Source: Candidatus Latescibacterota bacterium
GTDB lineage: Bacteria > Latescibacterota > UBA2968 > UBA8231
Reading direction: 5' to 3'
NCBI GenBank assembly: GCA_965248265.1
Contig: CBDFJF010000001.1
Span: forward strand, 128,001 to 192,000
DNA length: 64,000 nt
Shown here: one piece after another, positions 2,685-31,989 of the stretch
How the letters are laid out: every line of letters starts with the position of its first letter
How positions within the stretch are numbered: the first letter of the stretch is position 1
The notes under the pieces: model-generated
What the model was told of the DNA's origin: nothing
Database searches by the model: none
Seen by the model: the letters and a program-made list of their open reading frames with translations, nothing else
Program-made: the position numbers and the translations under genes

Positions 2685-5429
2685 TTATTCTTGACTTCCT
2701 TGTTTCCGTTCATCAAAAAAGCGCCTCACTTCCTTCGCAGACAACTGAGCAAGTAGCGCCTTCCTGTAAGCAACTAGCCGGTGCATGATATTTCGCAAGG
2801 ATTGGGTTGCCGGCAGGAGCTCCAAAGCTACATTCCCCTGCTGGATCGCATCGTCCACTTTCTTCAATTCCGTCGCCGATGTCGCATACCGATCGACTGA
2901 GAAATACCGGCCCAACACTTCCGACCATATCTGGGAGACCCGGCCGTACTGGCCGAACAGGTCGGCGTCTTCCTCCTGGAGATTGACGACAAACCGCCGA
3001 AAGTCGACAGGCCGGAATGGGAGTGCGTCCAACAGGTTATTGTCTCCCAGCTGGCTGTACTGGTGGAAACCGAACGCAGTAAAGAACTCGAGGATCGGCC
3101 GGTCATCGGTGTGCACGGGGACCTCGCCGACATAATCGCGCACGCCGTCCTCATCCAACAGCAGAAAGTGCACGAACTGAAACGGATGCGTGATATTCAC
3201 GTCCTTCAGGTCCGCACTGATACTCGAATTCGCAAACCCCTCCTGCAGGCGGTCGAGGTCGATCTCGAGCGGCTCTGGCGTGGCGACAAAGATGGAAAAG
3301 GTGGTGAAATCGTGATTCATCGTCCACACGCTCGGGTGTTCGAACACATCCGCAAACGTGTGGAGCAGGATCTTGAACTCGGCTTCGCTGAGCTGTACGT
3401 GCGGCGTCCAGGCACAGGCGATCCCCCCGCTGGCCAACCGCGATTTCATGAGCTCGAAATACTCCCGCGTATACAGATTCCCGTTCTGTTTGTATTGCAG
3501 ATTGGTCACGTCCGTCGAGATCACATCGTAGCGTGTGTCGGTTATGTGTAGATGATTGCGCGCGTCATTCAGGATCAACCGGAAGCTGGGTTGCTGCAGG
3601 GCGTTGGTGTTCTCACGAAAAAACAGGGAGGCAGCTTGCACGACCTCGGGCTCGATTTCCGCACAGTCCGTTTCAATCTCGTGCAGCGTCATCGACCGCG
3701 AGGTCCCGCCGCTTCCAAAACCGACGGTCAAGGCCCGTTTGGGTTCTGGATGCAGCAGGAGCGGCAGATGGGCGAGCATTTTTGAATCGATCCGGTTGCT
3801 GAGCGAGGAGGCGGCCACGGCCTGATCGTCAACGTACAGGGTCGTCCAAGAGGACTTGCTGCCGGGCCTTGTAGACTGTTTGGCCATGACCGTTCCCGAA
3901 CGGCCGGCCTTGTACAGCAACAGCGTGGTAGCTCTGCCGGAGTCGCTTCGAGCCGGCACGATCCAGTTCCCATCTCGAAAGACCACATTGCTGTTTTTCA
4001 AGAAGGGATGGCCGTGGACGCCATAGATGGCGGCGCCGACTCCCAGCAAGACGGAACAAGCCACGAAAGCGAACCTTCCGCGAATGGGATCGTCTTTCCC
4101 GGCCAGCAGTGTCAGGCCAGCTAACAGGCAACTGGCGCAGCACAAAAACCCCAGGCTGCCGACGAGGCCCAGCGGTGGAATGAGAAAGAAACCCAGGAGC
4201 ACGACTCCTGACATGGATCCCAGAGTGCCGATAAAGTAGTACCAGCCACTCTGTTCAGCAGTCGACTCCACGCGCGGGATCAACACCTGGCAGAGCGCCG
4301 GATAGGCCAGGCCCATGAACACGGTCGGCAGGAAGATCATCACCAATGAAAAAGACGCTTCAACACTCGTTAACATGGCCGGTGTCAGAGCCTCCTGTTT
4401 TGCCGGCATGTCGATGAATACTCTCTTCATTGCCGGAAACGAGTATACCAGAGGTAACGTGGCAAAGATTGTGAGCGCCGTTCCCAGATTGGAGAGCACG
4501 AATACTGTCAACCCCTTCACCCATCGGGCCAGCAACGGAAACAGCAGAATGCTTCCAGTAGAAAAACCCAGCAGGTACGTTGAGAGGATGAGCGTGAAGG
4601 TGATAAGACTGTTGGTGGTGTAAATGGCGAGGATCCGGAACCAGAGGATTTCGTAACCCAGGGCAAGGGCTCCAGCGAAAAAATAGATAATGACGAGCGT
4701 TTTCGGAGAGGGAAAGGGTTTCATGCCGTTTTGGCTTTCCCGTGTTCCGGATCCGTCGACTTGTACTGCGCTGTCACGCCTCAGCCAGGCGTTGGACAAG
4801 GCGATTAGCACCACCACAGCGTTTACAGAGCCAGCCACATACAGGCTATTTTGCACTCCCAATTCGCGGATCAGCACAAAACCCGTGGCCAGGCAGCCGA
4901 GCACGGCCCCGATCGTGTTGATGCCGTATGCCAGCGCAACCCCGCCTCCGACGTCACGGCCCTGTTCTACCAGGAGTCGGTTCATTGCCGGAATCGTGGC
5001 GCCCATCCCCAGCGTGGCCGGCAGGACGACCATGACGGAAAGGACAAACCGGTAAAACAGGGACAACAGCGGACCGGGCTCACTTCCCTGAAACAAATAC
5101 AGGTAGACATGGTCCATCGCGGCCAGCAAGACGGGTACCGCCAGCGCCCATACGCCTATCAAAAACTCCACCCAGCCGTAAAAGGCGAGGGTGCTTTTGA
5201 TACGTTTCAGCAATCTACCGCCGAAGTAGCTGCCGAATGCGATACCGCAGAAGAATGCAGTCAGAATGGCGGTCGTGGCCGGGGCGCTAGCGCCGAATAC
5301 CAGAATCATCTTTCGTTGCCACAAGGTCTCATAAATGAGAGCGCTGCAACCGGACAGGAAAAACAACGCCACCAGCAATCTGGAAGAGAAAATTTTCTCC
5401 GGATTCCTTTTGGCTTTATCCATGCCCAA
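2685..5429 (-). CDS. Fused multi-TM (MFS-like) / spermidine synthase-like protein
   Basis: About 12-13 hydrophobic segments (FFLSGCSALIYE, LPATLGMGATIP, YGINTIGAVLG), then a SAM-binding fold (VGFGSGGT, EIEPEV, DAR, YDVISTD, LYTREYF). Confidence 0.85.
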   Translation of the reverse strand: MGMDKAKRNPEKIFSSRLLVALFFLSGCSALIYETLWQRKMILVFGASAPATTAILTAFFCGIAFGSYFGGRLLKRIKSTLAFYGWVEFLIGVWALAVPVLLAAMDHVYLYLFQGSEPGPLLSLFYRFVLSVMVVLPATLGMGATIPAMNRLLVEQGRDVGGGVALAYGINTIGAVLGCLATGFVLIRELGVQNSLYVAGSVNAVVVLIALSNAWLRRDSAVQVDGSGTRESQNGMKPFPSPKTLVIIYFFAGALALGYEILWFRILAIYTTNSLITFTLILSTYLLGFSTGSILLFPLLARWVKGLTVFVLSNLGTALTIFATLPLVYSFPAMKRVFIDMPAKQEALTPAMLTSVEASFSLVMIFLPTVFMGLAYPALCQVLIPRVESTAEQSGWYYFIGTLGSMSGVVLLGFFLIPPLGLVGSLGFLCCASCLLAGLTLLAGKDDPIRGRFAFVACSVLLGVGAAIYGVHGHPFLKNSNVVFRDGNWIVPARSDSGRATTLLLYKAGRSGTVMAKQSTRPGSKSSWTTLYVDDQAVAASSLSNRIDSKMLAHLPLLLHPEPKRALTVGFGSGGTSRSMTLHEIETDCAEIEPEVVQAASLFFRENTNALQQPSFRLILNDARNHLHITDTRYDVISTDVTNLQYKQNGNLYTREYFELMKSRLASGGIACAWTPHVQLSEAEFKILLHTFADVFEHPSVWTMNHDFTTFSIFVATPEPLEIDLDRLQEGFANSSISADLKDVNITHPFQFVHFLLLDEDGVRDYVGEVPVHTDDRPILEFFTAFGFHQYSQLGDNNLLDALPFRPVDFRRFVVNLQEEDADLFGQYGRVSQIWSEVLGRYFSVDRYATSATELKKVDDAIQQGNVALELLPATQSLRNIMHRLVAYRKALLAQLSAKEVRRFFDERKQGSQE

Positions 5430-5438
5430 TCGGACTGA

Positions 5439-7625
5439 TCAATAGACGACGGAGAGAGTGCCGATTTGCGCGTCGTCTGCGGCGGCGTCCAGCGCCAGTC
5501 GGTACACGTAGGTCCCGGGCGGGACGAGCCGTCCGAAGCGGTCCCGGCCGTTCCACCTGAATTCATCCTGTCCGCTTCTGGACAGATTGGGTGGGAGCTC
5601 CCTGATCCGCGTGCCGGCGAGGTCGAAGATCACCAATGATACCGGGCTGTCCGCCGTTACGTCGCGCAGCCCGTACGAAATGATGGCCGTGTCATTGATA
5701 CCATCGCCGTTCGGCGTGAAGGGATTGGGGAACACGCCGATCCCCACCAACAGGTCGCCACCCACGGGGGTTGTCACGCTCAGGGTGTTGCTGGAAAACC
5801 GGTAGGTCGCGTCTCCCGGTTCGACTCGCTGTTTGACCTGGCCCGGATCCGTGCTGTTGGACACCCATCCTCTGAATTCGGTGCCGAAACGCAGCACCGC
5901 AATGTCGAAGGCGACCTCGATCTGCTTGGCACTGTCTCCTTCACCCTTGAGCTGGGGAAAATAGATGACGATACGGTCATCCTGTATGCCTGGCGGGTAA
6001 CCCGTCGTGGCGTTAGGGTCAGTGTACGCACCCAGGTCTACCGCCACACCGTCCACCTCGACCGAGCGCACCGTGTCGACGCGCGAATGAGTGAGGATCT
6101 CCAGGCGATCGAAGCCCAGATTCTCAGACAAAAAGGTGGGACGCACTACGTAGGAGAAAGTCGTCGGTGAGAAGGAGTCCACCTCGGGGGGCCAGATCTC
6201 ACCCGCGATCTCCTCCGCTGCGAAATCCGGCGATAGCTGCAGCGTTAGTTCATCGAGCCGGGGCGCGGTGTTGACCGTGGCGAAGAGCTCGATCTGGATC
6301 TGGATGTACCGGCTCGATCCCAGAGAGAGAAGAGGCGTGCCGTCTGTCCAGTCTTCGGGTGCTTGGGAGCGGTCGCGCAGACCCGCCTCGAACTCATAGG
6401 GCGGTGACCACGGGCCCCAGTTGTCAGTATCCTCGATCCGGACCTTTCCGGCTCGTGTGTCAACGGTAGCCCCTGCCCCCGCCGCAAAAAACGCTGCAGC
6501 GGTGATTTCGTCGTATTCCTCCTTGGAGATAGGGACGAGGTTGTCGTTGGGGTCTGTTTTGAAATACAGTCTCGGATCCGGCGTATTCCCCGCGCGAGTG
6601 CGGATCAGCACCCGCGTTCCTTCCGGCATGTCGCCACTCCAGCGGATCTTGCCCCAATTGACCTTCGCCCCGAAATCCAGAATGCGGCTCAGGAAGGCGG
6701 TCTCTCTGACAAATCCCCCGCCGTACACCTCGAACTCGGCGACCTCCCAACCGCGTTCGGTGTGTACTTTCAACGTCAGAAAGCGGATGGACCGGGGCGG
6801 GAAGCGCAGGTCCACGACCACATCCTTGCCCTCCGTCTCAAAGCGCAAAACTGTTGGCAGGAAGCGCTTTTGGTCGTAGGTCCAGATTCTCTCAGGATCC
6901 GGGTCGCAGGGGCCGCTGCGCCTCAGGGGGTACGAACTGTCGGCGACGCGGATTTCGTATTGGTCCACGAAATTGTCGGCAAAGCTCACCTTGCCGAAGG
7001 CCTCGTCCGGCGGTTTGGGATCTGCCAAACCCCGGATAAACAACAGACCGTCCTCGCTGCCGAGACGGGGATAGAAGCGAATGCGGTTGATGGGCAGATC
7101 CCCTCCCAGATCGATGACGGTCGGCGCCCCGTTCAGATCGTAGCCGCCTCCATCGGGATTCAGGAAGGTCGCAGTCGTCGGATCTCCGTCGAACATCGGC
7201 CTAACCAACTTCAGGAACCCGAATTCGAAGCCGCAGTCTCGGGCAAACCAGACATTCCCTCCCGTGAACGGCAGGGGAACCTTGCTTTCGGGTGACTGGG
7301 GATCGGTCAGCGTCAGGTTGACCGTTGGGTCGATAAAACGCGGTCTAAGGAAGCGGCTGTCGCGGCCTCCGATGGTGGTGTCCGCGAAATCGACCATCGA
7401 CTCCTCGCCGCCGCCGTATGGCGTGGTCGTCACCGGAACCGCGCCCTCCAGATTGCCCTGCGCATCGAAGAGCTGGTACACCCCGGCATCCTCGGACAGG
7501 GCGACCTGCCAGGGGTTTCCATCCTCGCCCCCAAGTCGGTACTCCGTTCCCCCCGGAACATCGGAGGCGCTCAGCAAGAGACCGCCCAACCACAACGCTG
7601 AGGATCGTCTGACAAGCCGAGTCAT
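5439..7625 (-). CDS. Secreted discoidin-like protein with C-terminal FlgD-Ig (PNPFTPNGDG) domain
   Basis: Signal-like N-terminus from ATG 7625 (ORF track starts 7679); DLG..IRFYPR; C-terminal PNPFTPNGDGIND...WNGRD..GRLVPPGTYVYRL. Confidence 0.8.
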   Translation of the reverse strand: MTRLVRRSSALWLGGLLLSASDVPGGTEYRLGGEDGNPWQVALSEDAGVYQLFDAQGNLEGAVPVTTTPYGGGEESMVDFADTTIGGRDSRFLRPRFIDPTVNLTLTDPQSPESKVPLPFTGGNVWFARDCGFEFGFLKLVRPMFDGDPTTATFLNPDGGGYDLNGAPTVIDLGGDLPINRIRFYPRLGSEDGLLFIRGLADPKPPDEAFGKVSFADNFVDQYEIRVADSSYPLRRSGPCDPDPERIWTYDQKRFLPTVLRFETEGKDVVVDLRFPPRSIRFLTLKVHTERGWEVAEFEVYGGGFVRETAFLSRILDFGAKVNWGKIRWSGDMPEGTRVLIRTRAGNTPDPRLYFKTDPNDNLVPISKEEYDEITAAAFFAAGAGATVDTRAGKVRIEDTDNWGPWSPPYEFEAGLRDRSQAPEDWTDGTPLLSLGSSRYIQIQIELFATVNTAPRLDELTLQLSPDFAAEEIAGEIWPPEVDSFSPTTFSYVVRPTFLSENLGFDRLEILTHSRVDTVRSVEVDGVAVDLGAYTDPNATTGYPPGIQDDRIVIYFPQLKGEGDSAKQIEVAFDIAVLRFGTEFRGWVSNSTDPGQVKQRVEPGDATYRFSSNTLSVTTPVGGDLLVGIGVFPNPFTPNGDGINDTAIISYGLRDVTADSPVSLVIFDLAGTRIRELPPNLSRSGQDEFRWNGRDRFGRLVPPGTYVYRLALDAAADDAQIGTLSVVY

Positions 7626-7687
7626 CGCTCTCTTTCTCTCCCGATTCCGACCCTTCGAAGCTGTGGCCTTGCGCGCCATGGCGCGCC

Positions 7688-8680
7688 CTACCTTTTCAGC
7701 ACTTGCTCGATCTGCTTCTGCAGTTCGGTCTGCGCCAAGGCGTGGATCCTCCGGGCTCGGTCCGTCCGGGCGAACTCCGCTGCGTGACGCCGCGCTTCCC
7801 TCACGTTTCCTGTCCGTTGGTAGACGTTCGCCAGTGCTTGGTGCACGTGGGGATCCTCCGGTGTCACCTCGAGGATTCTGCCCAGATGCTCAATGGCGGG
7901 AACGTACCGGTCCTGCCTCATCAGAAGCAACGCCAGACTCCAGCGAGCCTCCAGGTAATTCGGACTGTGCGCTACGGCTGAGCGCAGGTGCTTCTCCGCA
8001 AGATCCGTCCTCTCGGTCCGCTCCAATCGTACTGTCTCGCCGTCAGCTTTTTCGAGCCCGATCAGCAGATCCGCCATGCGAGTGCGAAGTTCCGGTTCTT
8101 GGGGAAACTCCTCCACCAGGGTTTTCCATTCTCCGATGGCGGATTGCGTGTTCCCGAGCCTTTGGTGCAGCCTTGCCAGCCGGTAGCGTACCGAGCTCGA
8201 GTCCGGGGCCATGGTCAGAGCGCGACCGTAGGCCTCCGTCGCCGGTAACAGCCGGCCCGCCGTCTCGTAGGCGTAGCCGATTTGAGCCCAAAGATCCGGC
8301 CACTGCGGCCGCCGGTCGGCGAGATCTTCAAAAACGGCGATGGCCTCGTCGTAGCGCTGTCTCCGGGCATAGGTCCTCGCCAGGCGCAACCCGACCGACA
8401 GTGAATCCGGTTGCCGGGCGAGGAATCTCCTGTACATATCGATAGCCTGAACCTGGTCCTGATCGTCGTACAACCTGGCCAGCCGCAACAGGGCCCCTTC
8501 GTGGTCTGTATGCCGTTCGAGGACCGACCGATACTCGCGGATGGCATGGGCTTTCATTCCACGTCTTTCGTAGTCCTGACCGAGGCGGTAGTGCTGGCTG
8601 CCGTCCCTGATCAGAAACACAGTAGCCATGCACATCAGGCCGATCAGAATCGCCAGGACGGCGTACCAGCGACGACGCAT
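7688..8680 (-). CDS. Tetratricopeptide repeat protein with N-terminal membrane anchor
   Basis: N-terminal hydrophobic helix and multiple TPR helix pairs; its ATG directly follows the TAG of the upstream gene. Confidence 0.85.
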   Translation of the reverse strand: MRRRWYAVLAILIGLMCMATVFLIRDGSQHYRLGQDYERRGMKAHAIREYRSVLERHTDHEGALLRLARLYDDQDQVQAIDMYRRFLARQPDSLSVGLRLARTYARRQRYDEAIAVFEDLADRRPQWPDLWAQIGYAYETAGRLLPATEAYGRALTMAPDSSSVRYRLARLHQRLGNTQSAIGEWKTLVEEFPQEPELRTRMADLLIGLEKADGETVRLERTERTDLAEKHLRSAVAHSPNYLEARWSLALLLMRQDRYVPAIEHLGRILEVTPEDPHVHQALANVYQRTGNVREARRHAAEFARTDRARRIHALAQTELQKQIEQVLKR

Positions 8681-11338
8681 CTACTCGAGGCCGGCGTAAA
8701 CGGTGATGAAGCTCTGAGTGATCGTCAGCGGCTTCCGCCCCCTGGGATCCCGGCGATCGATCTTCAGACCCAATTGGGTGATGAGCTTGTACCCAAGGTA
8801 ATCGGAGACATTGGTGAACTGGCTGGCCGCGGCCACACCGTTGAAATCGTTGTCGTCCCTGACCAGATCATTCAGGAAGGTCAATTCCAGTCCCGCCTGA
8901 AACGTAGTATGTGTCAGCATGGGCACCGCCAGGATTACGCCGCCGATTTCGGCCAGCTCCTCTCTTTTGTCAGCTGAGACGAGATCGAGGGTCTGTTTTC
9001 GGTATTCGCTCTTCCAGCGGGGCTCGATCCACAGACGGCCCAATTCGAAGCGGTAGCTGGCTTTGTTGATCACGCCGAAGAAGTAATCGCGCTTCTCCAG
9101 ATCCAGGACGTCGCGCTCACTCTGGGTCAGGCGGTGGTGATAGAACTCCCATTTCAGAGAATTGACAGTCTTCAGACCTGCGTACTGATAATCGTGGCCG
9201 ATCCAGAGGGAATTCACCCAGGTATCCGGTGCGATCAGAGGATCGATGATCTTCGTCGCCTGCCCCAGGTGGACATCGACGTTTGGCAAAAATTGCAGGA
9301 GGTCGTTGGGGATATCGTCCTTCACCGATTTCAACATGTCGAATATCCTGAAACGACCGTAGCGGGGAAGGCTCCGGTCAACGGTGAGGAGAAGGTAGCT
9401 GATCTCATTTCTCTGGTCGGTGGAAATGAGCTGCTCACGCAGTACACCGGCCATGAGTCGGATACCCGGGGCCAGATGAGTTCCCCCATATACGTTGTAC
9501 CCTTCGTGATCCCTCCGGTACGGAAAGTCTGGCTCCTCGTCGTTCTCGAACCGGTCCACCCAGACGTTGTTGTTGAGGTCGATGCCGAAGAGAAACTCGG
9601 GACGATCCACGTTGTGGCGCAGGAAAGCCTCGTCGTAGTCCGGCGTCAAATTGGGCAGGATGCGGTTGTCGTTCTGGTTGAAATCCGAGATGAAATCATT
9701 GTTCTCATCCCAGCCAGGAAAAACCGTGCGGTCGCCTGCCGGATGGTCTCTGCGCTCGGTATCCGGCTCACGATCCTGGTCGTCGTTGTCGTCCACGAAT
9801 TCCACCACAAAGCTCCGTTCATCCTCGTAATCGAAGCGGCCATCGCGGGCGGTGACGAAGGTGCTCGTGTTGTAGCGGGGATCCATACTGTACGCTTCCC
9901 CAAAAGCGAACCAGGGGTACTCGTTTCGCGAGAGATTCACCATCCAGGCCGGAGCCGATCGTGCCCCTCTAATGCCGGACGAAGAAGAGTGATCCTGCGT
10001 GGATTTATTCGGGTATTTGGTGTAGGAATAACTCACATCGTATTCCCCGTAGAAGTCAAAGCCCTTCACCTGCTGAAGCTCCAGGGACATGCCCCAGATC
10101 TGCGTCGCTGTGGGCAGGCCGTACTCGAATTCTACGATCTGTAGATTGGTGTTGTCCTGAACGTTGCCCTTCGCCTGGGCGACCAGCAGCAGGACGGGCT
10201 GCTTGGTTCGATTCAGCTGCTTGCTCGAGGTGACCCAGACCTGGTAGTCATTCCCCAGGACGAGTCGGAATTCGACCTTCTTGATTTCTTCCTTCGGCCT
10301 GCTGGCCCGGGTGGCAAAACTCGGGCCGTTGAAATCGTAACGGAGGCGGATCTCTTCGGTGCCGTCGGCCGACAGGTGCCCCTCCTGTTCGAAACCGCCT
10401 TCGATGATGGGTCCGAAGCGGATCCTCTTGCCCTCGTCTACGGTACCGTCCAAGTAGGTGATGATGATGTCCGATCCGGCCTGAAAGAAGGCGGCGCCAC
10501 CGGTTCTGTCTTCGGGGGAATCATCCCTCAGCACGATCTCGATGAAATCGATGAATTCGTTCTGGTCAATCGTCAACTCCCCTGTAATAGGGTTGCCGGC
10601 AAACCCGTCGATCAGCGTGTTGGAGTGGTGCGAATTGACGGACGTGAGCCCCAGGGTGGCAAAGTCTCCCACCTGAGCCGTGACCCGCCCACCGATCAGA
10701 GAGGTCGTATTCGTGACGAGTCGTTCGCCCGCGGTGGCCTGCCCCCCGGGCGAACTGAGCCGTGAGTATATGACCGTGGCCTCATATTTGTCGGCAGCAT
10801 AGTCGAACTGCACTCCGTCCCAGGACGGTTTGGAGAAGGTCATCGGGGTGAGGGTGGTACGCAGCTCATCGCCGATCGTCATGGCGTAATTGTGTTGCCC
10901 CTTGGAGTCGGCGGAGATGACGAGGCTGCCGAACCATTCACCGAAATTGCTTGACTTGAGTACGGAGCTACCGTCCTGCTCGGGCTGGTTCTGCGAGTTG
11001 TTGAAGATCAGCCAACCCCGGGTTACGAAATTGCCGTAGAGATCGTAGAAGTAATCGCCCTGGAGCGTCGTGCTCACGTATCTCTGGTAGGCGTTCCTGG
11101 CGTAGTTTGAGTATTCCCACTGCCGCCACCGGTATTCGTTGTAGAGCTCCTGGGGTACGTACCATTTCTTCACCGCTGGATCCAGGGCCCCGAACATGAC
11201 GCCCGGACCCTGCGGCTCATACGAGAGCTCCCCACCCCGTCTCACGGAACCCAGGCGGGCACCGTAGTCCTGGGCCGATACCTGCGCGGATGCCAGCACG
11301 AAACTGACACATACCAGGAGATGGACGTATCTGCTCAC
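8681..11338 (-). CDS. Large exported protein of unknown function, possibly outer-membrane, with Asp/Asn-rich loops
   Basis: GTG 11338 after AGGAGG RBS (ORF track starts 11362); signal peptide ending ASAQVSA; DDNDDQD, DENNDFISD, DLNNNVWVD motifs; alternating beta-strand pattern in the C-terminal third. Confidence 0.7.
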   Translation of the reverse strand: MSRYVHLLVCVSFVLASAQVSAQDYGARLGSVRRGGELSYEPQGPGVMFGALDPAVKKWYVPQELYNEYRWRQWEYSNYARNAYQRYVSTTLQGDYFYDLYGNFVTRGWLIFNNSQNQPEQDGSSVLKSSNFGEWFGSLVISADSKGQHNYAMTIGDELRTTLTPMTFSKPSWDGVQFDYAADKYEATVIYSRLSSPGGQATAGERLVTNTTSLIGGRVTAQVGDFATLGLTSVNSHHSNTLIDGFAGNPITGELTIDQNEFIDFIEIVLRDDSPEDRTGGAAFFQAGSDIIITYLDGTVDEGKRIRFGPIIEGGFEQEGHLSADGTEEIRLRYDFNGPSFATRASRPKEEIKKVEFRLVLGNDYQVWVTSSKQLNRTKQPVLLLVAQAKGNVQDNTNLQIVEFEYGLPTATQIWGMSLELQQVKGFDFYGEYDVSYSYTKYPNKSTQDHSSSSGIRGARSAPAWMVNLSRNEYPWFAFGEAYSMDPRYNTSTFVTARDGRFDYEDERSFVVEFVDDNDDQDREPDTERRDHPAGDRTVFPGWDENNDFISDFNQNDNRILPNLTPDYDEAFLRHNVDRPEFLFGIDLNNNVWVDRFENDEEPDFPYRRDHEGYNVYGGTHLAPGIRLMAGVLREQLISTDQRNEISYLLLTVDRSLPRYGRFRIFDMLKSVKDDIPNDLLQFLPNVDVHLGQATKIIDPLIAPDTWVNSLWIGHDYQYAGLKTVNSLKWEFYHHRLTQSERDVLDLEKRDYFFGVINKASYRFELGRLWIEPRWKSEYRKQTLDLVSADKREELAEIGGVILAVPMLTHTTFQAGLELTFLNDLVRDDNDFNGVAAASQFTNVSDYLGYKLITQLGLKIDRRDPRGRKPLTITQSFITVYAGLE

Positions 11339-11385
11339 GGCACGCCTCCTCTGTTCAACCAACCACCGCCGCCAATAATTGCCGT

Positions 11386-14541: not shown

Positions 14542-14571
14542 GCGTGCCTCCTGCGGACTGCTGACCTGGAG

Positions 14572-16224
14572 TCAATCGGCCAAAAGACTATCCGGTAGCG
14601 CTTCGGCAAGACGGGACTCGTACACCCTGACCTCGGCGGCGTATTTGTCACGCAACTGCGCCAGCAACGCCTCCATGCCTTCTTTCGCTTTTTCCACGAG
14701 CAGCGTCGCCGTAGCCTGTCTCTTCGCCGTACCATACGGTTGCACCGTCCGCGGCTCCACGCTCAGCACTTTGAATACCGACCATCCCCCTTTCACTTCG
14801 ATGGGGCCGACGATCTCTCCCTCGGGCGCTGCCATGATGGCCGACAAAAGCCGGGGATAGAGAGCACTTTGGCGATAATGAAAGTGAAATCGGCCGGTGG
14901 ACTCCCGGGCCCCCTCCCTCAAGCTGCTGATCGTGAAGTCCTCCCAAGGCTCTCCCGCTGCCAGCCGCCGATGCACCTCCAGCGCCTCGTCCTTGGTCAG
15001 CAACAGCACCTCCTTGATATATGCCGAAAACTCGGTCATGAAGAATTCGGGGTTGCTGTCGTAATACTGCTTCACTTGCTCCTCGGATAGGCCTACGCGC
15101 TCGGGTGCGACGGACTTCCTGATCATTTCGAGCAGGGCTTTCTTCGCGGTTTTCTCCTCGAACTCGCGGACCTCAGGTCTGTCGTACAACCCGGCCTGCC
15201 GGGCCGCTGCGTCGAACAGGGCGGGACGGAGGACTGCCACCTCGAGGGTGGAGACGGCCTTTGCGCTGTCCGCCAGCTGTCGGAAATGGTCCGGCCGCTG
15301 CATGACTTCGTAGGCCTCGGCAACCGTTACCTCGCCGCCCTCAAATCCGTACAGTACGACCCCGCTTTTTTCCAGTCCAGTGGTCTCCTTCGTGCGATAG
15401 GCCTCCCGCAGTTCCGTCAGTCCCCCCGGATGAAGCCTGACCCCAAAGGACTCCCTGAGCGATTCGAAGTGCTCCGCTTCCAGCTGAGACATCATGTCAC
15501 CCAGGAGGTGAGACCTTGCCGCGCCCCGGTATCTCTCAAACGGTACCGGGCGCTCTTGTGTGAATCGGAGGACGGACCAACTGTTGTCCACAGGCTGAGG
15601 TTTTGAGACCTCACCCAGGGGCAGAGAGACAAAGAGATCCAGCGGGATGCCGACCGACCCTACTCTGTACCGGTCCACCCACGTATAGTGCCCTCCCTGG
15701 CTGGCGGCGCGCTCCTCCGTGGAATACTCACGGGCGACTTCCTCGAAAGGACGACCCGCCTCCAGTTCACCCACGACCTTGTCGATGTCTGCCCGAGTAT
15801 CCACCACAATCGCGGTGAACCAGCGTTCGATCTGGAAACCGTGATGGGCGGAGAATGCGCGCAGCTCATCCTCCGTGACCTCGATTCTTGACAGGATTTT
15901 GTCATGGCGGTAACGCGCCCGCACCTTCGTGGCAACCGCATTCCGGACCGACTCCCGCACCGTCAAGGTCGTGTCCAGGCCACGGGATCTGGCCTCCATC
16001 AGCAACAGGCGGCCGTCTACGAGGGACTGCAGGTAGTGTCGCCGTGCTGCCTCGCCTGTCTTCTCTGTGCGCAATCCCGGCGCCAAGCCGCTGACGAATT
16101 CTCGCAAGGCGGTGGGCGTGATCTCGTGCGATCCCACCACGGCCACCACGTCATCTGGCTCCGGTCGACTGCAGCAGGCCAGGAAGCTCGCGAAAACGGC
16201 GATGCCGAGCCGGAAGTAAACCAT
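14572..16224 (-). CDS. PpiC/parvulin-type peptidyl-prolyl isomerase, SurA/PrsA-like lipoprotein
   Basis: ATG 16224 after GAGGAG; lipobox-like FLACC; VVAVVGSHEIT; FEEVAREYS..GG; GEVSKP; second domain GEIVGPIEVKGGWSVFKV. Confidence 0.8.
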   Translation of the reverse strand: MVYFRLGIAVFASFLACCSRPEPDDVVAVVGSHEITPTALREFVSGLAPGLRTEKTGEAARRHYLQSLVDGRLLLMEARSRGLDTTLTVRESVRNAVATKVRARYRHDKILSRIEVTEDELRAFSAHHGFQIERWFTAIVVDTRADIDKVVGELEAGRPFEEVAREYSTEERAASQGGHYTWVDRYRVGSVGIPLDLFVSLPLGEVSKPQPVDNSWSVLRFTQERPVPFERYRGAARSHLLGDMMSQLEAEHFESLRESFGVRLHPGGLTELREAYRTKETTGLEKSGVVLYGFEGGEVTVAEAYEVMQRPDHFRQLADSAKAVSTLEVAVLRPALFDAAARQAGLYDRPEVREFEEKTAKKALLEMIRKSVAPERVGLSEEQVKQYYDSNPEFFMTEFSAYIKEVLLLTKDEALEVHRRLAAGEPWEDFTISSLREGARESTGRFHFHYRQSALYPRLLSAIMAAPEGEIVGPIEVKGGWSVFKVLSVEPRTVQPYGTAKRQATATLLVEKAKEGMEALLAQLRDKYAAEVRVYESRLAEALPDSLLAD

Positions 16225-16359
16225 GCTTGTGCTCTCCTCACGCGTGTGCGTGGACAGTTCCCCACCTGTTTGTCGAATGGTACTCCATATCACACCCTCA
16301 CACAACATGGTCGGCAGAGCGTCTTGTCCTGTGCGCGTAGCGAAACACCGACGCTGTCC

Positions 16360-16835
16360 TCAGCCATCCAGCAGTGTCCGCATCTCCTCCGCCACACCCT
16401 CCACCGCCGCCTCGAGAATGGCGCCGCCCTTGGCGGTCGTCGCCTTCTGCGCGTTCTCGTAGTTCAGAGAGTCGGCGCGAATGCGCTCCGGGAACACGGC
16501 CATGGCGAAGGAGGTTTCGAACTCTCCGGCGTGGCCCCCCGAGCGCTCCAGCTCCAGGTTCGCCTCGTACCACTCCTGGCTGATCGTCTCCCAGTAGGAC
16601 ACGTAGCTCACGCCCATGGCGTCGAGCCGGGCCATGGTATCCGGCGCCACGGCCGCCATTTTCTCGCGCTTGTTTCCCCCGTGACCGTTGACGACCATCA
16701 CCCTCGCCACTCCGAGCCGCACCAGGCTGTCGCACACGTCGTGGACCGTCTCCACGTGGATCTCGGGGCGCACCGTCAAGGCGCCACCCCGCGCCATATG
16801 GTGCTCCGACACCCTCATCGGAATGGTCGGGGCCG
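16360..16835 (-). pseudogene. Creatininase family protein, N-terminally truncated
   Basis: PTIP.VSEHHM, VVNGHGGN and GGHAGEFETS motifs; the N-terminal part with the first metal ligands is absent. Confidence 0.7.
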
Positions 16836-16934
16836 TGCACCGGTCTGGTTGACGGGGTCTGCAAATCTGTTCCTCACGGACCGTACAACGCCAGCGTCTA
16901 CGCGTACAGCGGCGAGGCCGGCTACGGACTGGCA

Positions 16935-19823
16935 CTAGCGCCGGCGCGCGGAAAGCAGGCGCTCCAGCTCTCTGCGAGTCGCGGTCCGCGTCGAATCGAC
17001 TTCGAGGGCTGCTCTGTAGGCGTCGATGGCCTCATCCATCTTGCCCTGGGCCGCATAGACCTCACCGAGGTTGCTGAGGGTCGGGGCCAGTTCCGGTCTC
17101 AACCGTATGGCCCTCTGGTAGGTCTGCACGGCGGCTTCGAGTAGCCCCGACTCGAAATACGCCCGCCCCAAATCACTCAGGGCCTCCACGAGGCTCGGGT
17201 CGACTTCACCGGCTTTGATGTAGGCCTCTATGGCCCGCTCGAGATACCCCTTGTAGTGGAACGCTGCACCCATTCCATAGTGCGCCATACCGTGGCCGGG
17301 ATCGAGCTTGACGGCCTTCGCGAATGAGGCGAGGGCCGCGTCGAAACGCCCCTGCTTGACGTAGGCCCGGCCCAGGCGGTAGTGCCATTCCGTTACATCC
17401 GCGTACTGCTTGATCTTGTCCGTGTACAGGTCCACCTGGTCCTGCACACGCTGCAGCCGTTCGAAAATCCGTTGCTCCCGTTCAGACGTTTCGCGTTGTC
17501 CTTCAATCTCGTACAACCGGACCAGCTGCAGGTGCGGCGCCGGCGCGTAGGGAGCCACCTTCACCGCCCTCTTGAACGCTTTCTCCGCGGCCGCCGTGTT
17601 CCTGAGGCGCAGATAAGCGAGTCCCATCCGAGCATGACTCTGCCAGGGCGATGGCTCCAGGGCGATGGACCGCTTCAGTGATTCTATGGCCCTTTCAGGC
17701 TCGTTGAGACCCAGATAGACCGCCCCCAGGAGCGCCTGGATTTCCGCCCACGAGGAGTCCTGTTGGACCGCCTCTTCGAGGACAGATGCGGCTTCCCGGG
17801 GCCTACCCAGTCCGGCATGGAGAGTGACCCCGAGGGCGTAGTAGGCCTCCATGTAGTCGTGACGCAGCTGAATCGCACCCCTCAGCCAACCCAGGGCCTC
17901 CTCGTGACGTCCCTGGTCGTAGAGCCCGGTGCCGCGTGCGTAATGCTCATCCGCCGTCAAGCTGGCGTCCACGACGTAGGCATTCGGCTCCTCCGGCTCG
18001 GGCTCCGGCGCCGATGTCGTGACCTCAATCGCGACACGCTGCTGCTTCGCTCCCGGCCCGGCGTACATCGCAATCACATTTTCCACACCCTCCCGCACTA
18101 CGAGATAGTTGCGCAGCTGTGGATCCTCCAGCACCTGCTGACTCCCCGATGGCCAGCGAATCTCCACGCGGTCTACCCGCTCTTTCCCGCCCAGACCGAA
18201 GATCAACCGCGGATCGTGCTGCGACTGGAACCCGTATCCGCGATGCACCTCCCGCACCTGAGCCAACGTGCCGGCCACCACCCGTACCCGCGCTCCGATC
18301 GCGTCCCGGTTGCTCTGAACGCCCTCGAGTTGCAGACCGAACCAGTTGTTGCCGTTGCCGCCGTCGTTTTGCAGCAAGGACGGCTTGTCGTTCAAGTTCA
18401 TCAGCAGCACATCCACGTCGCCATCGTTGTCGTAGTCCCCGAGAGCCGCGGCCCTAGTCACCTTGTCGATGGACCAGCCGGGACCGGCCTTCTGCCCCGC
18501 TTCGGCAAAGCGGCCGTGCTCATTGTGATGGAGTAAGTTGCGCTGCGCATAACGCATGCCGGAGGGGTACTCCTCCAGCTGCGGATACAGATGCCCGCAG
18601 GCTGTGAACAGGTCAAGCCAGCCGTCGTTGTCGTAGTCGAAAAAGCCGTTGCTCCAACACAACAGAGGGCGCACCCTCTCGAACAGGCCGGCAGCGAACG
18701 TCATGTCCGCGAAAGTGCCCTCGCCCTGGTTCTGGTAGAGGGTGTTCACGTCGTCGGAGAAGTTGCTGACTACCAGGTCCAGATCCCCGTCGTTATCGTA
18801 GTCACCGCTGGCCACGCCCATGCCGGCCTGGCTCCTGCCGTCTTCGCTGTAGGCGACGCCGGCCACAACCCCAATCTCCGGCAATTGCCAGTCCCCGTCG
18901 TTGCGCAAAAGCAGATTGGGCGCCGTATCATTGGCCACGTAGATGTCGAGATCCCCGTCATCGTCGTAGTCGCCGAAGACTACCCCGAGTCCCGGATGGG
19001 CGACCCGGTCCAAGCCTGTGGCCGCGCTCATGTCCGTGAAGCTGCCGTCCTTGTTGTTGCGGTAGAGTACGTCCGGTTGGTGCGGCATGGCATCGGGACC
19101 GGCCATGACCTCGAGTCCCTTGTAGAGTGCGACACCCGGCGGGTTCGCCAGGTCGAACCCGAGATAGTTGGTGACGTACAGATCGACAAAGCCATCCCCG
19201 TCCACATCCCCGAAGGCCGCGCTCGATCCCCATCTCTCATCGGCCACACCGGCGCTCTCGGCGAGCTCGACGAAGCCGCCATCACCGTCGTTGCGATAGA
19301 GCCGGTTGGGTCCCCAGTAGGTCACGTAGAGGTCGGGATCCCCGTCATTGTCGTAGTCTCCCACGGCACAACCCATCCCCCAGCCGGTATGGCCGACGCC
19401 GGCCTCTTCTGTCACCTCCCGGAAGACCCGCCTTTGCTCGCCCTCCCGTCCTGGCGCTGCTCGATTGTGGTACAGTCTGTTCGTAGCACCTTCCACAGGA
19501 CCGTCCAGCCTCGTGCCGTTGACGACGAACAGATCCAGCCACCCGTCGACGTCGTAGTCCAGGAAGGCGGCCCCGGCCGACATGCTTTCCAGCACGTACA
19601 TCTGAGTCGGGCCGCCAGACACGTTCTCGAAATCCAGTCCCGCCTCCTCGCTCACATCCACGAACTGGACGTGCCCCTGTGTCGACACGCCATCCATCCC
19701 GCCGTCGTCCTGCCCCGAGCGTTTGGAACAACCCGGGACGAGGATAAGGCCGATAGTGATTATGTACAGCCTCTCAAGTAATTGCCGTCTGTAAGCGCAA
19801 CGACTCACGAGGCCGTGTGCCAT
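16935..19823 (-). CDS. CRTAC1-like FG-GAP + ASPIC/UnbV + TPR lipoprotein
   Basis: Lipobox-like LVPGC; many GDYDNDGDxD repeats; SNRDAIGARV...GFQSQ..RLIFGLG...RWPSG (ASPIC/UnbV); C-terminal TPRs. Confidence 0.88.
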   Translation of the reverse strand: MAHGLVSRCAYRRQLLERLYIITIGLILVPGCSKRSGQDDGGMDGVSTQGHVQFVDVSEEAGLDFENVSGGPTQMYVLESMSAGAAFLDYDVDGWLDLFVVNGTRLDGPVEGATNRLYHNRAAPGREGEQRRVFREVTEEAGVGHTGWGMGCAVGDYDNDGDPDLYVTYWGPNRLYRNDGDGGFVELAESAGVADERWGSSAAFGDVDGDGFVDLYVTNYLGFDLANPPGVALYKGLEVMAGPDAMPHQPDVLYRNNKDGSFTDMSAATGLDRVAHPGLGVVFGDYDDDGDLDIYVANDTAPNLLLRNDGDWQLPEIGVVAGVAYSEDGRSQAGMGVASGDYDNDGDLDLVVSNFSDDVNTLYQNQGEGTFADMTFAAGLFERVRPLLCWSNGFFDYDNDGWLDLFTACGHLYPQLEEYPSGMRYAQRNLLHHNEHGRFAEAGQKAGPGWSIDKVTRAAALGDYDNDGDVDVLLMNLNDKPSLLQNDGGNGNNWFGLQLEGVQSNRDAIGARVRVVAGTLAQVREVHRGYGFQSQHDPRLIFGLGGKERVDRVEIRWPSGSQQVLEDPQLRNYLVVREGVENVIAMYAGPGAKQQRVAIEVTTSAPEPEPEEPNAYVVDASLTADEHYARGTGLYDQGRHEEALGWLRGAIQLRHDYMEAYYALGVTLHAGLGRPREAASVLEEAVQQDSSWAEIQALLGAVYLGLNEPERAIESLKRSIALEPSPWQSHARMGLAYLRLRNTAAAEKAFKRAVKVAPYAPAPHLQLVRLYEIEGQRETSEREQRIFERLQRVQDQVDLYTDKIKQYADVTEWHYRLGRAYVKQGRFDAALASFAKAVKLDPGHGMAHYGMGAAFHYKGYLERAIEAYIKAGEVDPSLVEALSDLGRAYFESGLLEAAVQTYQRAIRLRPELAPTLSNLGEVYAAQGKMDEAIDAYRAALEVDSTRTATRRELERLLSARRR

Positions 19824-19946
19824 GTGTGACAGTCGCGATGTCCGATGGTTTGTGTGGTCGTGATGGGGATGCAGCGGTGTCGGGCCGGCTTGTCTCAGGC
19901 GGCAAAGTCGAGCTTGTCTCGCGGATGCGGCCGTGGCAGAAGATAC

Positions 19947-22867
19947 TTATCCGCTTTGAAGAGTTGCTTGGCCATTCTCAAAAATAGACTCCAGCCATTG
20001 CCAATAGGCTTTCATCTCATCCTGGTGCTTCTCAGACCTGCTCACCAAAAGCATATAGGAGTCAAAAACCTCTCTGGCCCCTTCTTTTTCGTTCATTTTA
20101 AACAATAAATATAACCTCAGCTGATAAGACTTCTCTTTATAGGTCCAATATCTTCCGAGAATCTCATAAAACTGCACGGCCAATGCGAATTGACGCTGTA
20201 CAATCATGCCCGTTGCCAAGTGATTTGTCATATTCAGTAGTTCCTCCACAACATTGACTCGTTTTTCCCTCTTTTCCAGCGCGATAAGCTCAGCCAGTGC
20301 CTTAGGTGCTTGACCATAACTCATGTTTTCTTCATTCAGCACCTCTACTAATATGCGTTGAATAAACACATCGGAATTCAGCAAAGAGAAAATTTCGTAA
20401 TCTGTAGTATGCGGATTTGATAAGATCCAGTGCAGTTTTTCAATTCTTTTAAATGGTGTTTCATGGTTTAAGTTATGGATAGTACGCTTGGCTGAGAAAT
20501 GTGGCCTCGTCTTTTGCTGTATCTCTTGTGGCCAAATAAGATCAATATCTTTACTATCAAGAAAGATATTCACAATGGACGGATCTGCTATAAACGGGCT
20601 ATAAACCTGCGCCATTTGTTTCTTGGATTGCTCCATATCAATTGATAATCGTTTCGGATAATTATCCGTCAGCGGTTTTGCGTTCTCCAGCCATTGTTCA
20701 ATGCGTGCTCGATCCGCGATAAAATTTGATCCTAATTCCTCTGGAGAGTGCATACCCAATGCTCTCATTTCAAGGGATACTTCTTTGTCTTTCCACTGTC
20801 TCACAAACTGCTCCAATGGGACTGACCTTTTCGGCCTCTTGATTCCAACCATCATCCAATTGTAACCGCCGCCATCCCATAATGTGCAATGTTCAAAGAC
20901 ATTGCAAAATCCTCTGAGAATAGATTTGCTGCTTGTCAAACTCATTTGCGTTACCGGCAGCCAATAGGTCACGATTCCCTGATCGTTAAGTTTATCGTAA
21001 GCAAGCTGAAAATAATCCTCCGTATATAAATTATCTATCCCCTTATATGGTGGTGGTGGCGGCTCGCCTGTGATCAAATCGTACTTTTTCTTCGTAGTCT
21101 GTAAAAAGAACCTTCCATCCTCAACATGAACAGTAACACGCGGATCATGAACCGGATTATCTTTATTTTTCGGAAAAATATGCTTGCTCATCCTAAAGAC
21201 ATCATTTGATATATCAACAAAATCTATCTCTTCAATAGACTTAGTGTCCGTCAAGGCTTTGGCTGTTTGTCCGGCTCCAAAGCAGATAAGAGCTGCCCTC
21301 TCAATATGTGGATGAATGGCAACAGGCAAATAGACATACATCTTCATATAACGCCTGGGTAAGAAGCGCGTCGACGACATAGGGTGTCCATTCGTAATCA
21401 ATCGGACATAATGTGTAAATCCGAAAAATGATCTTCTCAAATATTGAATGGTTTCCGTCAATCCTTCCCTGACAGCAATACGCCTCTCACCGAGCTGCTT
21501 GTATGTCTTGGTGGGAATATCAAGATACTTTTCAATGGTGCCATGAGGGAAAAATATAAGTATCGGCGCAATACACACGGCATAAACCTTGAGGGTATTC
21601 TCTATACTCAGATAGTTCCCCTTAAGCTCAAACATGCTTCCTGCCAACAGAACATAACCAACTCCAAGAATGATAAGGGATGTCTCTATTCCGAATTGTG
21701 GAACAAAAACACTCCCGGCAACAAGCGCACCAATCATACTTCCGAAAGTATTACAAAATGTTAGCACACCCGTTGCAGCCGCATCATTGTTAACATGTTT
21801 GTGTATCAATTGTCCCAGTAGGGGAAATACTATTCCTGAACAGATGGCAATGGGACAGGCAAGAAAGAGCGCCGTTATGACAATACCGAAAGGATGGGTT
21901 TTGGGCACATTGCTATAGACCCACGTAAAAATGTGGATATATCCTACATATGTCAGAATGACGAAAATTCCTGCACTAAGGAGGCTATAGCTTACCGCGT
22001 TTTTTAGTGATACCATCTTGCTCAATTTTGATCCAACAAATCCCCCAATACTTATCCCTAATAACACGACAGCCAAGATTATAGCAAAGAATAAGCTGAA
22101 GGCATTCATAGACAATAGCATAAATCGAATCCAGATCATCTCTAGCGCTAAGAAAATTAAACCTGAGAAAAAACTGACAACAAGGATTCTTAAAGGAAGG
22201 TCTTTTTTCAATCGCAGGAAATGAATATGAACTTTTTCCTTTTGTTCAACTATCCTTTTCCCAAATTGAATAAATACAACTAGAGCTATTATCAGATTTA
22301 TACTCACAGCCACCAAGCCCGATCCAAAAATACCTAAGAGCTGCACTAAAGATAATTCCGGAACCAGTACTCCGACGACAGCCCCTAAAGTATTCAATCC
22401 ATACAATAGGCCTAGGGACGATCCAAAATCTTTTCTAAAATCATTCAGCGCAGCTACGAATACAGGCAATGTCGCTCCCATAGCCGTCGTCGGAACAAGC
22501 AACAAGCCGAAGGCAAGAAGAAATCTTAGTGAGTTCAGCTTTATTGGTTGATCTAAGAATTGTTGAAAGAGTTGGGCAAAAGATTGATTAAGGAGTGGAA
22601 AAAATATGAGAATACACAGTGCGCTGGCTGCAATAATGATCTCAAGAACACCATAAAGAAATAACGGCCTTTTGATCCTCTGGCCCCAAATCATCGTCGC
22701 TAAATTTCCCAGGGCTATCCCGCCCATAAAGCTTGCCAAGACAATGGCAGCCGCCCAGACACTATTGCCGAAGACGAGCCCTGTTAATCGAAACCAGATA
22801 TATTCATAAATGAGTGCAGCCACACCGGAGAGCAAAAAATGATGTAGAGGGAAATGCGATTAGTCAT
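19947..22867 (-). CDS. Second fused multi-TM / spermidine synthase-like protein; AT-rich; 1-nt frameshift near start
   Basis: ORF 19947..22835 with LSGVAALIYE, PTTAMGATLP, CFGAGQT, EDGR, YDLITGEPPPP; ATG at 22867 is out of frame across a T6 run. Confidence 0.8.
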
Positions 22868-31392: not shown

Positions 31393-31869
31393 TCGGACTG
31401 ATCAATAAACGACGGAGAGAGTGCCGATTTGCGCGTCGTCTGTGGCGGCGTCCAGCGCCAGTCGGTACACATAGATCCCGGGGGGGACGAGCCGCCCGGC
31501 GGTGTCCCGGCCATTCCACCTGAAGTCATCCTGGCCGCTTGTGGACAGATTGGGTGGGAACTCTCTTATCCGCGTGCCGGCGAGGTCGAAGATCACCAGT
31601 GATACCGGGCTGTCCTCCGTCACGTCGCGAGGCCCGTACGAAATGATGGCCGTGTCATTGATGCCATCCTCGTTCGGCGTGAGGGGATTGGGGAACACAT
31701 CGATCTCCACCAACAGGTCGCCACCCACGAGGGTCGTCACGCTCAGGGTGTTGCTGGAAAACCGGTAGGTCGCGTCTCCCGGTTCGACTCGCTGTTTGAC
31801 CTGGCCCGGATCCGTGCTGTTGGACACCCATCCTCTGAATTCGGTGCCGAAACGCAGCACCGCAACGTC
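31393..31869 (-). pseudogene. 477-bp duplicate of the 3' end (FlgD domain) of 5439..7625
   Basis: Colinear direct repeat of 5430..5906, roughly 90% identical by eye; no 5' gene part. Confidence 0.9.
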
Positions 31870-31989
31870 AGATAGAAGACCCACAGGGGTACCTGCACGA
31901 TCGGAAAGGAGAGTTGCTCTCCTTCTTCAACACCCCTGCCGCCATCGTCCTCAGCCGTGTTCGAGCGCCGCCAGGCGCGCTCAAGCGTG

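Follow-up and report, generated by a model that had tools for sequence, protein, structure and literature searches.

A repeated Latescibacterota gene cassette built around an undescribed outer-membrane barrel most probably supplements type IX secretion

Introduction

To our knowledge, type IX secretion system (T9SS) biology is known almost only from Bacteroidota. The SusC/SusD polysaccharide utilization loci (PULs) of Bacteroidota feature a large outer-membrane barrel and surface binding proteins, and many paralogous loci of this kind occur per genome. The subject here is a cluster of envelope genes in the window, which is the whole stretch of 64,000 nucleotides (nt) that was analysed, located on contig CBDFJF010000001.1 (128,001–192,000, forward strand) of Candidatus Latescibacterota bacterium GCA_965248265.1. 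The cluster includes a gene for a large barrel protein, BAR893, genes for proteins with a C-terminal sorting domain, and genes for a peptidyl-prolyl isomerase (PPIase) and a tetratricopeptide repeat (TPR) protein. A first-pass annotation had proposed that these genes encode an undescribed export and surface-assembly system. The comparative analysis reported here shows that the region is one copy of a Latescibacterota cassette that is repeated many times, and indicates that this cassette is most likely an add-on to the T9SS and not a new secretion system. The genome (7.32 Mb, 92% complete) consists of two contigs, C1 and C2.

The closest described systems are pairs of T9SS cargo proteins and dedicated barrels. 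Excerpts of two papers state that type-B cargo in Bacteroidota uses a cognate PorP/SprF-like barrel and not PorV, that the barrel gene is usually located directly downstream, and that the cargo stays bound to the barrel on the cell surface (PMC9143113, PMC12618676). The binding of type-B cargo by PorP-like barrels is described in the excerpt of the former paper (PMC9143113), and the location of the shuttle gene directly downstream of the cargo gene in that of the latter (PMC12618676). Pairs named in these excerpts are PorP-PorE-PG1035 of P. gingivalis and SprB-SprF and Fjoh_3952-Fjoh_3951 of F. johnsoniae (PMC9143113, PMC12618676). A literature search found no paper on a T9SS of Latescibacterota or on the barrel family described here, and none of the Gemmatimonadota and Fibrobacterota papers listed by a search mentioned 'type IX secretion'.

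The barrel protein

Protein families were called with Pfam and NCBIfam on 11 window proteins, and the N-termini were read for signal peptides, lipoboxes and hydrophobic segments. Judged from its predicted structure, BAR893 is an outer-membrane barrel of an undescribed family. The gene has two candidate starts, a TTG at 11362 that yields a protein of 893 amino acids (aa) and the start at 11338 used in the first-pass annotation, which yields 885 aa. The protein has no Pfam match at E ≤ 5, which covers the plug domain PF07715 and TonB_dep_Rec PF00593, and no NCBIfam match at E ≤ 0.01, which covers TIGR04189 (SprA/Sov) and NF033710 (PorV). The PorP/SprF families PF11751 and TIGR03519 also gave no match to the barrel, and a barrel profile had no match among PDB sequences at E ≤ 1. 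Among 8000 scored candidates there are 867 homologs, none of which has a Pfam domain, and those with a name are each a "hypothetical protein" of Latescibacteria metagenome-assembled genomes (MAGs). Against 1.84 billion representatives, the barrel matches 725 clusters formed at 50% identity, and for 207 of these the match reaches E ≤ 1e-30.

An AlphaFold2 model built from an alignment of 53 homologs (predicted local distance difference test, pLDDT, 68.6; predicted template modelling score, pTM, 0.69) features ~24–26 long strands within residues 147–893 and a beta-sandwich inserted at approximately residues 273–400. An Asp/Asn-rich loop (~526–606) failed to model, as did the N-terminal region (~30–146), which is strongly conserved and rich in aromatic residues. 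The earlier proposal that the ~885-aa protein is an outer-membrane scaffold or translocon is supported in that the protein models as an outer-membrane beta-barrel; its translocon part is not, as the tails of the partner proteins are of T9SS type and SprA is encoded elsewhere. Assignment of the barrel to a family by structure was tried and rejected, since Foldseek and VIA-align returned generic barrels only (SlpA, MtrB, FimD, LptD, SprA, FhaC, TamA and porins), with TMq ≤ 0.27, Z ≤ 14.2 and a root-mean-square deviation (rmsd) of 6–12 Å. DUF6029 was the nearest named cluster in the ESM Atlas (0.89, 161 shared features), which otherwise returned unnamed clusters only, and it is a lead only; Pfam gave no DUF6029 match.

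Sorting tails and the type IX secretion core

Three families of exported proteins with a C-terminal domain (CTD) are found with the barrel, and they are represented in the window by CTD1051, CTD746 and CTD696. The tails had been described in the first-pass annotation as FlgD domains of an undescribed system. The tails of CTD746 and CTD1051 fall under the FlgD_ig cut-off and pass that of PF13585 CHU_C ("Type IX secretion signal domain"), with 31.8 and 31.1 bits, respectively, against a cut-off of 27, which identifies them with a T9SS sorting domain. By these profile scores the tails would be classed as CHU_C-class or type-B-like, and not as certified type B. CTD1051 additionally contains an F5/8 type C domain (PF00754, 31.8 bits; PF22633, 32.2 bits), and CTD696 is 28% identical to CTD746. 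The model of CTD746 (pLDDT 78.7) is an all-beta multidomain protein, in which a chain of beta-sandwich and jelly-roll domains ends in a seven-strand C-terminal sandwich. Foldseek with the CTD746 model returned only multi-immunoglobulin/FN3/discoidin chains with TMq ≤ 0.16 and no enzyme fold. These domain matches and models make the CTD proteins look like binding or structural surface proteins.

The genome encodes a T9SS core away from the cluster. SprA is located at C1:391223-396271 and passes its cut-off (296.9 and 276.6 bits), three PorU genes score above their cut-off, and one of these adjoins a PorV-like gene (C1:1897904-1898908) that scores 155.6 bits against a cut-off of 250. PorP/SprF (TIGR03519) had no match in this genome, in a search whose control itself gave no match anywhere. 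The cluster carries CHU_C tails and the T9SS core is encoded elsewhere; therefore, the cluster is not a free-standing secretion system. A link to known T9SS components such as SprA or PorV had been named beforehand as evidence against an undescribed system. Such a link was found for the tails, which are of T9SS type, but not for the barrel, which is neither SprA nor PorV.

The CHU_C tails are concentrated near barrel genes. Of the 28 CHU_C matches that exceed the cut-off in the window genome, 21 have a barrel gene within 10 kb, compared with 1 of 22 matches to Por_Secre_tail (type A), and the sequence within 10 kb of a barrel makes up 3.9% of the genome.

Conservation and duplication of the cassette

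Of 538 pattern matches in the species genomes of GTDB, 499 encode a barrel relative, and the best 79 of the 499 loci were fetched. Co-location was counted in loci with enough flanking sequence, namely 49 loci with at least 9 kb on each side and 65–66 loci for nearer neighbours. The position directly upstream of the barrel, in the same orientation, is occupied by a CTD1051 homolog in 53 of 65 loci and by a homolog of CTD696 in a further 5. Downstream of the barrel, 60 of 66 loci have a TPR homolog within 2.5 kb. Within 9 kb, a PPIase is found in 44 of 49 loci, and 47 of 49 have a member of the CTD696/746 families. The barrel is surrounded by the full set of four (PPIase, CTD1051, TPR and a CTD696/746 member) in 41 of 49 loci, where the order of the core is kept at 35–55% protein identity. 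The barrel homologs are thus syntenic elsewhere with CTD, PPIase and TPR genes, the outcome that the first-pass annotation had anticipated.

The window genome contains 18 barrel paralogs at 25–62% identity. Eight of them are packed, with CTD, PPIase and TPR genes, into ~70 kb at C2:2113814-2181084, including three tandem barrels at C2:2170139-2181084. Most members of the core families in this genome have a barrel at a distance of no more than 10 kb (PPIase, 7 of 8; CTD1051, 8 of 9; TPR, 5 of 6), and the shares for the ASPIC family (6 of 27), the two synthase fusion families (2 of 5 and 2 of 9) and the creatininase family (1 of 9) are lower. Because of the synteny of the related loci and these in-genome shares, the conserved core is the barrel, the three CTD-protein families, the PPIase and the TPR protein. 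A distant barrel subfamily is represented by three barrels at C2:1329320-1337078 (25–30% identity), with an ExbD pair (C2:1322236-1323057) ~6 kb upstream.

Co-divergence was measured with a mirror-tree comparison, in which pairwise identities of barrels are set against those of neighbouring cargos within one genome, where speciation cannot mimic co-evolution. In the window genome the correlation is r = 0.92 for CTD1051 (8 pairs, 0 of 2000 permutations as high), r = 0.86 for CTD696 (8 pairs, 0 of 2000) and r = 0.61 for CTD746 (7 pairs, 60 of 2000). The cassettes duplicate and diverge as units. The earlier suggestion that the tailed proteins are partners of the ~890-aa protein is consequently backed by conserved synteny, co-divergence and the co-occurrence across genomes described below.

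The two periplasmic candidates of the core are PPI578 and TPR330. PPI578 has matches to Rotamase_2 (73.7 bits) and Rotamase (46.4 bits) that are above cut-off and a lipobox, FLAC; its SurA_N_3 match is weak (17.5 bits, cut-off 27), and it misses all NCBIfam equivalog cut-offs. TPR330 matches TPR families in Pfam and has one hydrophobic segment (residues 6–24). In four related loci the gene after the barrel encodes a protein of 674–779 aa with an N-terminal PF13231 PMT_2 domain (GT-C glycosyltransferase) and a C-terminal TPR part (L005:12675-14894, L003:12674-14965, L051:12630-14969 and L069:12683-14707). TPR330 matches the C-terminal half of this fusion protein, and the membrane-embedded PMT_2 half is missing from the window and likewise from L001, its 92% relative. 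PPIase and TPR proteins had been proposed as assembly factors. Synteny and in-genome neighbourhood establish both as conserved members of the unit, and the assembly role itself is putative. Locus L005 also encodes a DUF6785/DUF6784 membrane protein (L005:25-1575; 300.6 and 102.6 bits) upstream of the PPIase, which is absent from the window cassette.

Distribution in the phylum

The survey covered 151 genomes sampled evenly from the phylum, with CHU_C called at E ≤ 1e-6. SprA is found in 150 genomes, the barrel in 94 and CHU_C in 90. All 90 CHU_C-positive genomes are barrel-positive, and CHU_C occurs in 0 of the 57 barrel-negative genomes, 56 of which have SprA; the remaining one (G026) has neither. 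The counts of the two features go together family by family. Barrel and CHU_C occur in 63 and 61 of 63 genomes of family f1, in 12 and 11 of 13 genomes of f10, in 5 and 5 of 6 genomes of f9, in one and the same genome (G030) of the 5 of f8, and in no genome of f2 (30 genomes), f3 (19) or f4 (2). With near-universal SprA (150 of 151) against 94 genomes with the barrel, CHU_C tails on the cargos, and SprA, PorU and PorV-like genes elsewhere in the genome, the proposal of an undescribed export system is not supported.

PF11751 is found in 0 of the 63 genomes of the window genome's own family. Weak PF11751 matches (20–28 bits) occur in 29 of 151 genomes, mostly in family f2 (25 of 30), which is without the barrel. 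The complementarity between PorP/SprF and the barrel is only partial, as f3 has neither (0 of 19) and four genomes (G001, G009, G031 and G035) have both.

Three genomes of one family (G060, G085 and G147) contain 122–173 first-look barrel candidates with best E values of only 1e-68 to 1e-75 and none or one CHU_C match. They have the look of a barrel subfamily that has diverged and expanded enormously and may use a different class of tail. Outside the phylum, two MAGs labelled Bryobacterales and Acidobacteriota each contain a single copy of the barrel, on contigs that measure 4.7 and 2.7 kb and may be mis-binned. MAGs labelled Planctomycetota and Gemmatimonas have 19–32 barrel matches, the kinship of which is not given.

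Comparison with described systems

The cassette shares several features with the PorP/SprF pairs. The cargo has a C-terminal sorting domain of CHU_C class that resembles type B, the barrel gene is directly downstream of a cargo gene (with a gap of 23 nt in the window), many cognate pairs occur per genome with the T9SS core encoded elsewhere, and a TPR protein is encoded nearby, as is PorE in P. gingivalis. However, the cassette barrel is ~890 aa with ~24–26 strands and shows no PF11751/TIGR03519 signal. Each cassette barrel is accompanied by three fixed cargo families, whereas the Bacteroidota barrel is paired with one varied adhesin. The cassette additionally has its own SurA-like PPIase and, in most cases, a GT-C/TPR glycosyltransferase; its CTDs fall under the TIGR04131 cut-off, and it belongs to Latescibacterota and not to Bacteroidota.

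The SusC/SusD PULs are similar in combining a barrel with surface binding proteins in many paralogous loci, and FG-GAP/ASPIC proteins are found nearby. In contrast to SusC, the cassette barrel has no plug or TonB-dependent-receptor domain, and no SusD family was found by Pfam among the 11 window proteins or 15 related-locus proteins. The surface partners of the cassette would arrive by the T9SS and not as lipoproteins, and there is no TonB or ExbD gene at the locus.

The SprA/Sov extended translocon, as far as the titles of PDB entries 8gl6 and 8gl8 describe it, likewise brings together a large barrel, a PPIase, a TPR protein and substrates with a CTD. However, the cassette barrel measures ~890 aa compared with ~2100–2400 aa and has no TIGR04189 signal, and the true SprA is a separate gene. 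The cassette barrel is also missing from 57 of the 151 genomes of the phylum, 56 of which have SprA.

Proposed role of the barrel and alternatives

The comparative data suggest that the cassette is a conserved, undescribed T9SS accessory module around a new barrel family. With moderate confidence, and by analogy with the pairs of Bacteroidota, the barrel is proposed to be the cognate outer-membrane partner, acting as shuttle and/or anchor, of three CHU_C-class cargos, which would make it a non-homologous analogue of PorP/SprF. The order of steps would be as follows. CTD1051, CTD746 and CTD696, which are multi-domain, lectin-like and apparently non-enzymatic, would be exported by Sec. In the periplasm, the cargos would be handled by the SurA-like PPIase lipoprotein of the cassette, acting as a dedicated chaperone, and by the membrane-anchored TPR protein. 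In most other copies of the cassette, the fusion of a GT-C glycosyltransferase and a TPR domain may glycosylate the cargo. The cargos would then use their CHU_C-class C-terminal domains to cross the outer membrane through the single SprA translocon of the genome. The 893-aa barrel would bind the cargos physically and collect and/or anchor them in a surface complex, which would in turn bind a ligand, probably a glycan.

Several results weigh against this proposal. Among the cargos, CTD696 scores 24.7 bits with FlgD_ig and 21 bits with CHU_C, each under its cut-off. The type-B sorting domain TIGR04131 matches CTD746 with 24.5 bits against a cut-off of 35 and has no match in CTD1051 or CTD696 at E ≤ 0.01, and the modelled CTD of CTD746 has seven strands, whereas an excerpt of Paillat et al. 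gives a four-strand sheet as the prediction for type-B CTDs (PMC12618676). The coupling of tails and barrels is incomplete in both directions. In the window genome, 7 of the 28 CHU_C matches are far from any barrel and 5 of the 18 barrels have no CTD-family gene within 10 kb, and four barrel-positive genomes (G003, G044, G060 and G147) are without CHU_C at E ≤ 1e-6. The sampled genomes are kin, so that the phyletic pattern amounts to a handful of clade-level events, and the 79 related loci are the closest of 499, with paralogs of the same genomes among them. Each cassette retains the same three cargo families, a pattern closer to a multi-subunit machine of fixed make-up than to a shuttle that serves varied cargo, and the barrel is ~3 times the size of PorP/SprF with no detectable shared sequence. 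The support for the proposal is wholly comparative, and binding between barrel and cargo is putative. A complex prediction that paired barrel residues 30–893 with the C-terminal 132 residues of CTD1051 returned no answer (score 0.00, without controls) and counts neither way.

A rival explanation is a PUL-like uptake unit, in which the barrel would primarily be a SusC-like channel for solutes or oligomers, the T9SS-delivered lectin-like proteins would be substrate-capturing lids, and each paralogous cassette would serve a different substrate. Such a unit is consistent with the 18 barrel paralogs in one genome, eight of them within ~70 kb, and the up to 173 first-look candidates in other genomes, with the F5/8 type C domain of CTD1051 and the lack of an enzyme fold in CTD746, with the large size of the barrel (~24–26 strands), and with the distant barrel trio on C2 that lies ~6 kb from an ExbD pair. 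However, the barrel has no plug or TonB-dependent-receptor domain, and no SusD-like neighbour was found among the window and related-locus proteins. The genome has 5 ExbD and 2 TonB_C matches, none of them near the cassette, and the nearest ExbD on the contig is at C1:1812707. The conserved core is without a glycoside hydrolase, and an uptake role does not account for the specific association of CHU_C-class tails with the barrel. A PUL-like unit is regarded as the main contender, unlikely but serious. It overlaps with the cognate-partner proposal, since anchor and channel could be one protein.

An autonomous export and assembly system, as first envisaged, would use the barrel as a SprA-independent translocon and the PPIase and TPR protein as its chaperones. 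The composition of the cassette does resemble the 'extended translocon' named in the title of PDB entry 8gl8 (SprA-PorV-PPI-RemZ-SkpA-SprE), and ushers and LptD are among the structural matches of the barrel. These matches are generic, though (TMq ≤ 0.27, rmsd 6–12 Å), the tails are of T9SS class, the cassette has no conserved energy source or inner-membrane component, and SprA is present in all barrel-positive genomes sampled (150 of 151 genomes overall), which together render an autonomous system improbable. Even further from the data would be a chance gathering of envelope genes with no functional unit. It is true that the ASPIC protein, both synthase fusions and the creatininase fragment vary and that one gene appears to be foreign, but the core is found in order in 41 of 49 loci at 35–55% identity, the paralogs co-diverge and the phyletic coupling is 90 of 94 versus 0 of 57, so that this explanation has hardly any standing.

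The cognate-partner proposal has implications beyond the locus. In a phylum where SprA is nearly universal, there is a second class of sorting tail whose occurrence follows that of an undescribed barrel family, by neighbourhood, from genome to genome and in the trees of paralogs. Should the barrel be a cognate shuttle or anchor, the logic of one cargo class to one dedicated barrel would be older and more flexible than PorP/SprF, and a role would be gained for a family of 725 sequence clusters (50% identity) that is now without one. If the barrel also conducts substrates, this would point to SusCD-independent polymer feeding in abundant uncultured marine and sediment bacteria. A broader scenario is possible, if doubtful, namely that Latescibacterota replaced PorP/SprF with an unrelated giant barrel and multiplied cassettes of a barrel plus three lectins, with their own chaperone and glycosyltransferase, into a PUL-like repertoire in which the barrel both anchors the T9SS-delivered capture proteins and passes the captured substrate. 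If true, the Fibrobacterota-Chlorobiota-Bacteroidota (FCB) group would have evolved a second, independent means of capturing glycans at the surface and taking them up.

Accessory genes and locus layout

The features of the window are listed in Table 1. The open reading frame (ORF) list confirms the gene arrangement of the first-pass annotation, eight large co-oriented genes and one remnant with tight spacing. The nine minus-strand ORFs between 2685 and 22835 are separated, from left to right, by gaps of 9, 8, 0, 23, 30, 51, -1 and 123 nt, and the TAG of the barrel gene (8683-8681) abuts the ATG of the TPR gene (8680-8678) on the minus strand. The description of nearly every product as having a signal peptide, a lipobox or a bundle of transmembrane segments agrees with the N-terminus scan, in which the barrel, CTD746 and CTD1051 have cleavable-looking signal peptides.

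Table 1. Genes of the window cassette and adjacent features (positions in the window).
Feature	Position	Strand	Description
SpdS1	2685..5429	-	fused major facilitator superfamily (MFS)/spermidine-synthase membrane protein; accessory
CTD746	5439..7679	-	exported chain of beta-sandwich and jelly-roll domains (predicted), 746 aa; CHU_C/FlgD_ig sorting domain at the C-terminus
TPR330	7688..8680	-	TPR protein, 330 aa; single N-terminal membrane anchor
BAR893	8681..11362	-	large outer-membrane beta-barrel (predicted) of an undescribed family; signal peptide
CTD1051	11386..14541	-	exported, 1051 aa; F5/8 type C (discoidin, lectin-like) domain and C-terminal CHU_C; directly upstream of the barrel
PPI578	14572..16308	-	SurA-like lipoprotein; two parvulin PPIase domains
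creatininase-family fragment	16360..16935	-	PF02633 profile positions 57-187 of 238; bystander remnant
ASPIC962	16935..19823	-	lipoprotein; FG-GAP repeats, UnbV_ASPIC and TPR (CRTAC1-like); frequent accessory
SpdS2	19947..22835	-	second fused MFS/spermidine-synthase protein; low-GC one-gene island
CTD696	24623..26713	+	third cassette CTD family; beyond SpdS2 and outside the interval of the first-pass annotation

The two synthase fusions match NF037959 (cut-off 40 bits) with 114 bits for SpdS1 and 86.8 bits for SpdS2, and both miss all polyamine aminopropyltransferase equivalog cut-offs. They have 13–16 hydrophobic segments, with 16 in SpdS1, and SpdS1 is 91% identical in L001. The GC content of SpdS2 is 0.37–0.47 across exactly 19947-22835 compared with ~0.6 on either side. 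This composition suggests a recent acquisition from a low-GC donor, and SpdS2 is probably foreign and not part of the unit; the occurrence of an enzyme at each end of the cluster is therefore partly an accident of insertion. A modification step dependent on S-adenosylmethionine or its decarboxylated form at each end, as had been proposed, is not borne out as part of the core, with a synthase fusion within 10 kb in 18 of 49 loci, the low shares of both fusion families near barrels in the genome, and the right-hand copy being the low-GC island. The ASPIC protein, ASPIC962, has a lipobox, VPGC, and had been counted as a component of the system. It is better described as an accessory, being present in 31 of 49 loci with few of its paralogs near a barrel. 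The first ~38 codons of the creatininase fragment are Arg-rich and have a non-coding look, and the fragment has no counterpart in L001.

A promoter and terminator scan at the locus gave counts no higher than in shuffled sequence (4 vs 4.3 and 18 vs 14.1), from which operon boundaries cannot be drawn. The metatranscriptomic run X22 contains contigs of 182–314 nt with 90–99% likeness to portions of the genes for CTD746, the TPR protein, the barrel, CTD1051, the PPIase and the ASPIC protein; these give neither strand nor transcript, come from an RNA library that may hold DNA, and are not evidence of co-expression. In sequencing runs X1 and X5, 20528-21855 is without cover, which is not interpretable.

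Further CHU_C tails are found to the right of the cassette. A 701-aa ORF that matches Glyco_hydro_42M (31990-34095, minus strand) is followed, 105 nt downstream, by a 160-aa ORF (31402-31884, minus strand) made up almost wholly of a CHU_C/FlgD_ig tail, and the two may be a single tailed glycosidase-like gene broken by a stop or frameshift. Another short CHU_C frame is located at window position 34587-34865 (C1:162587-162865).

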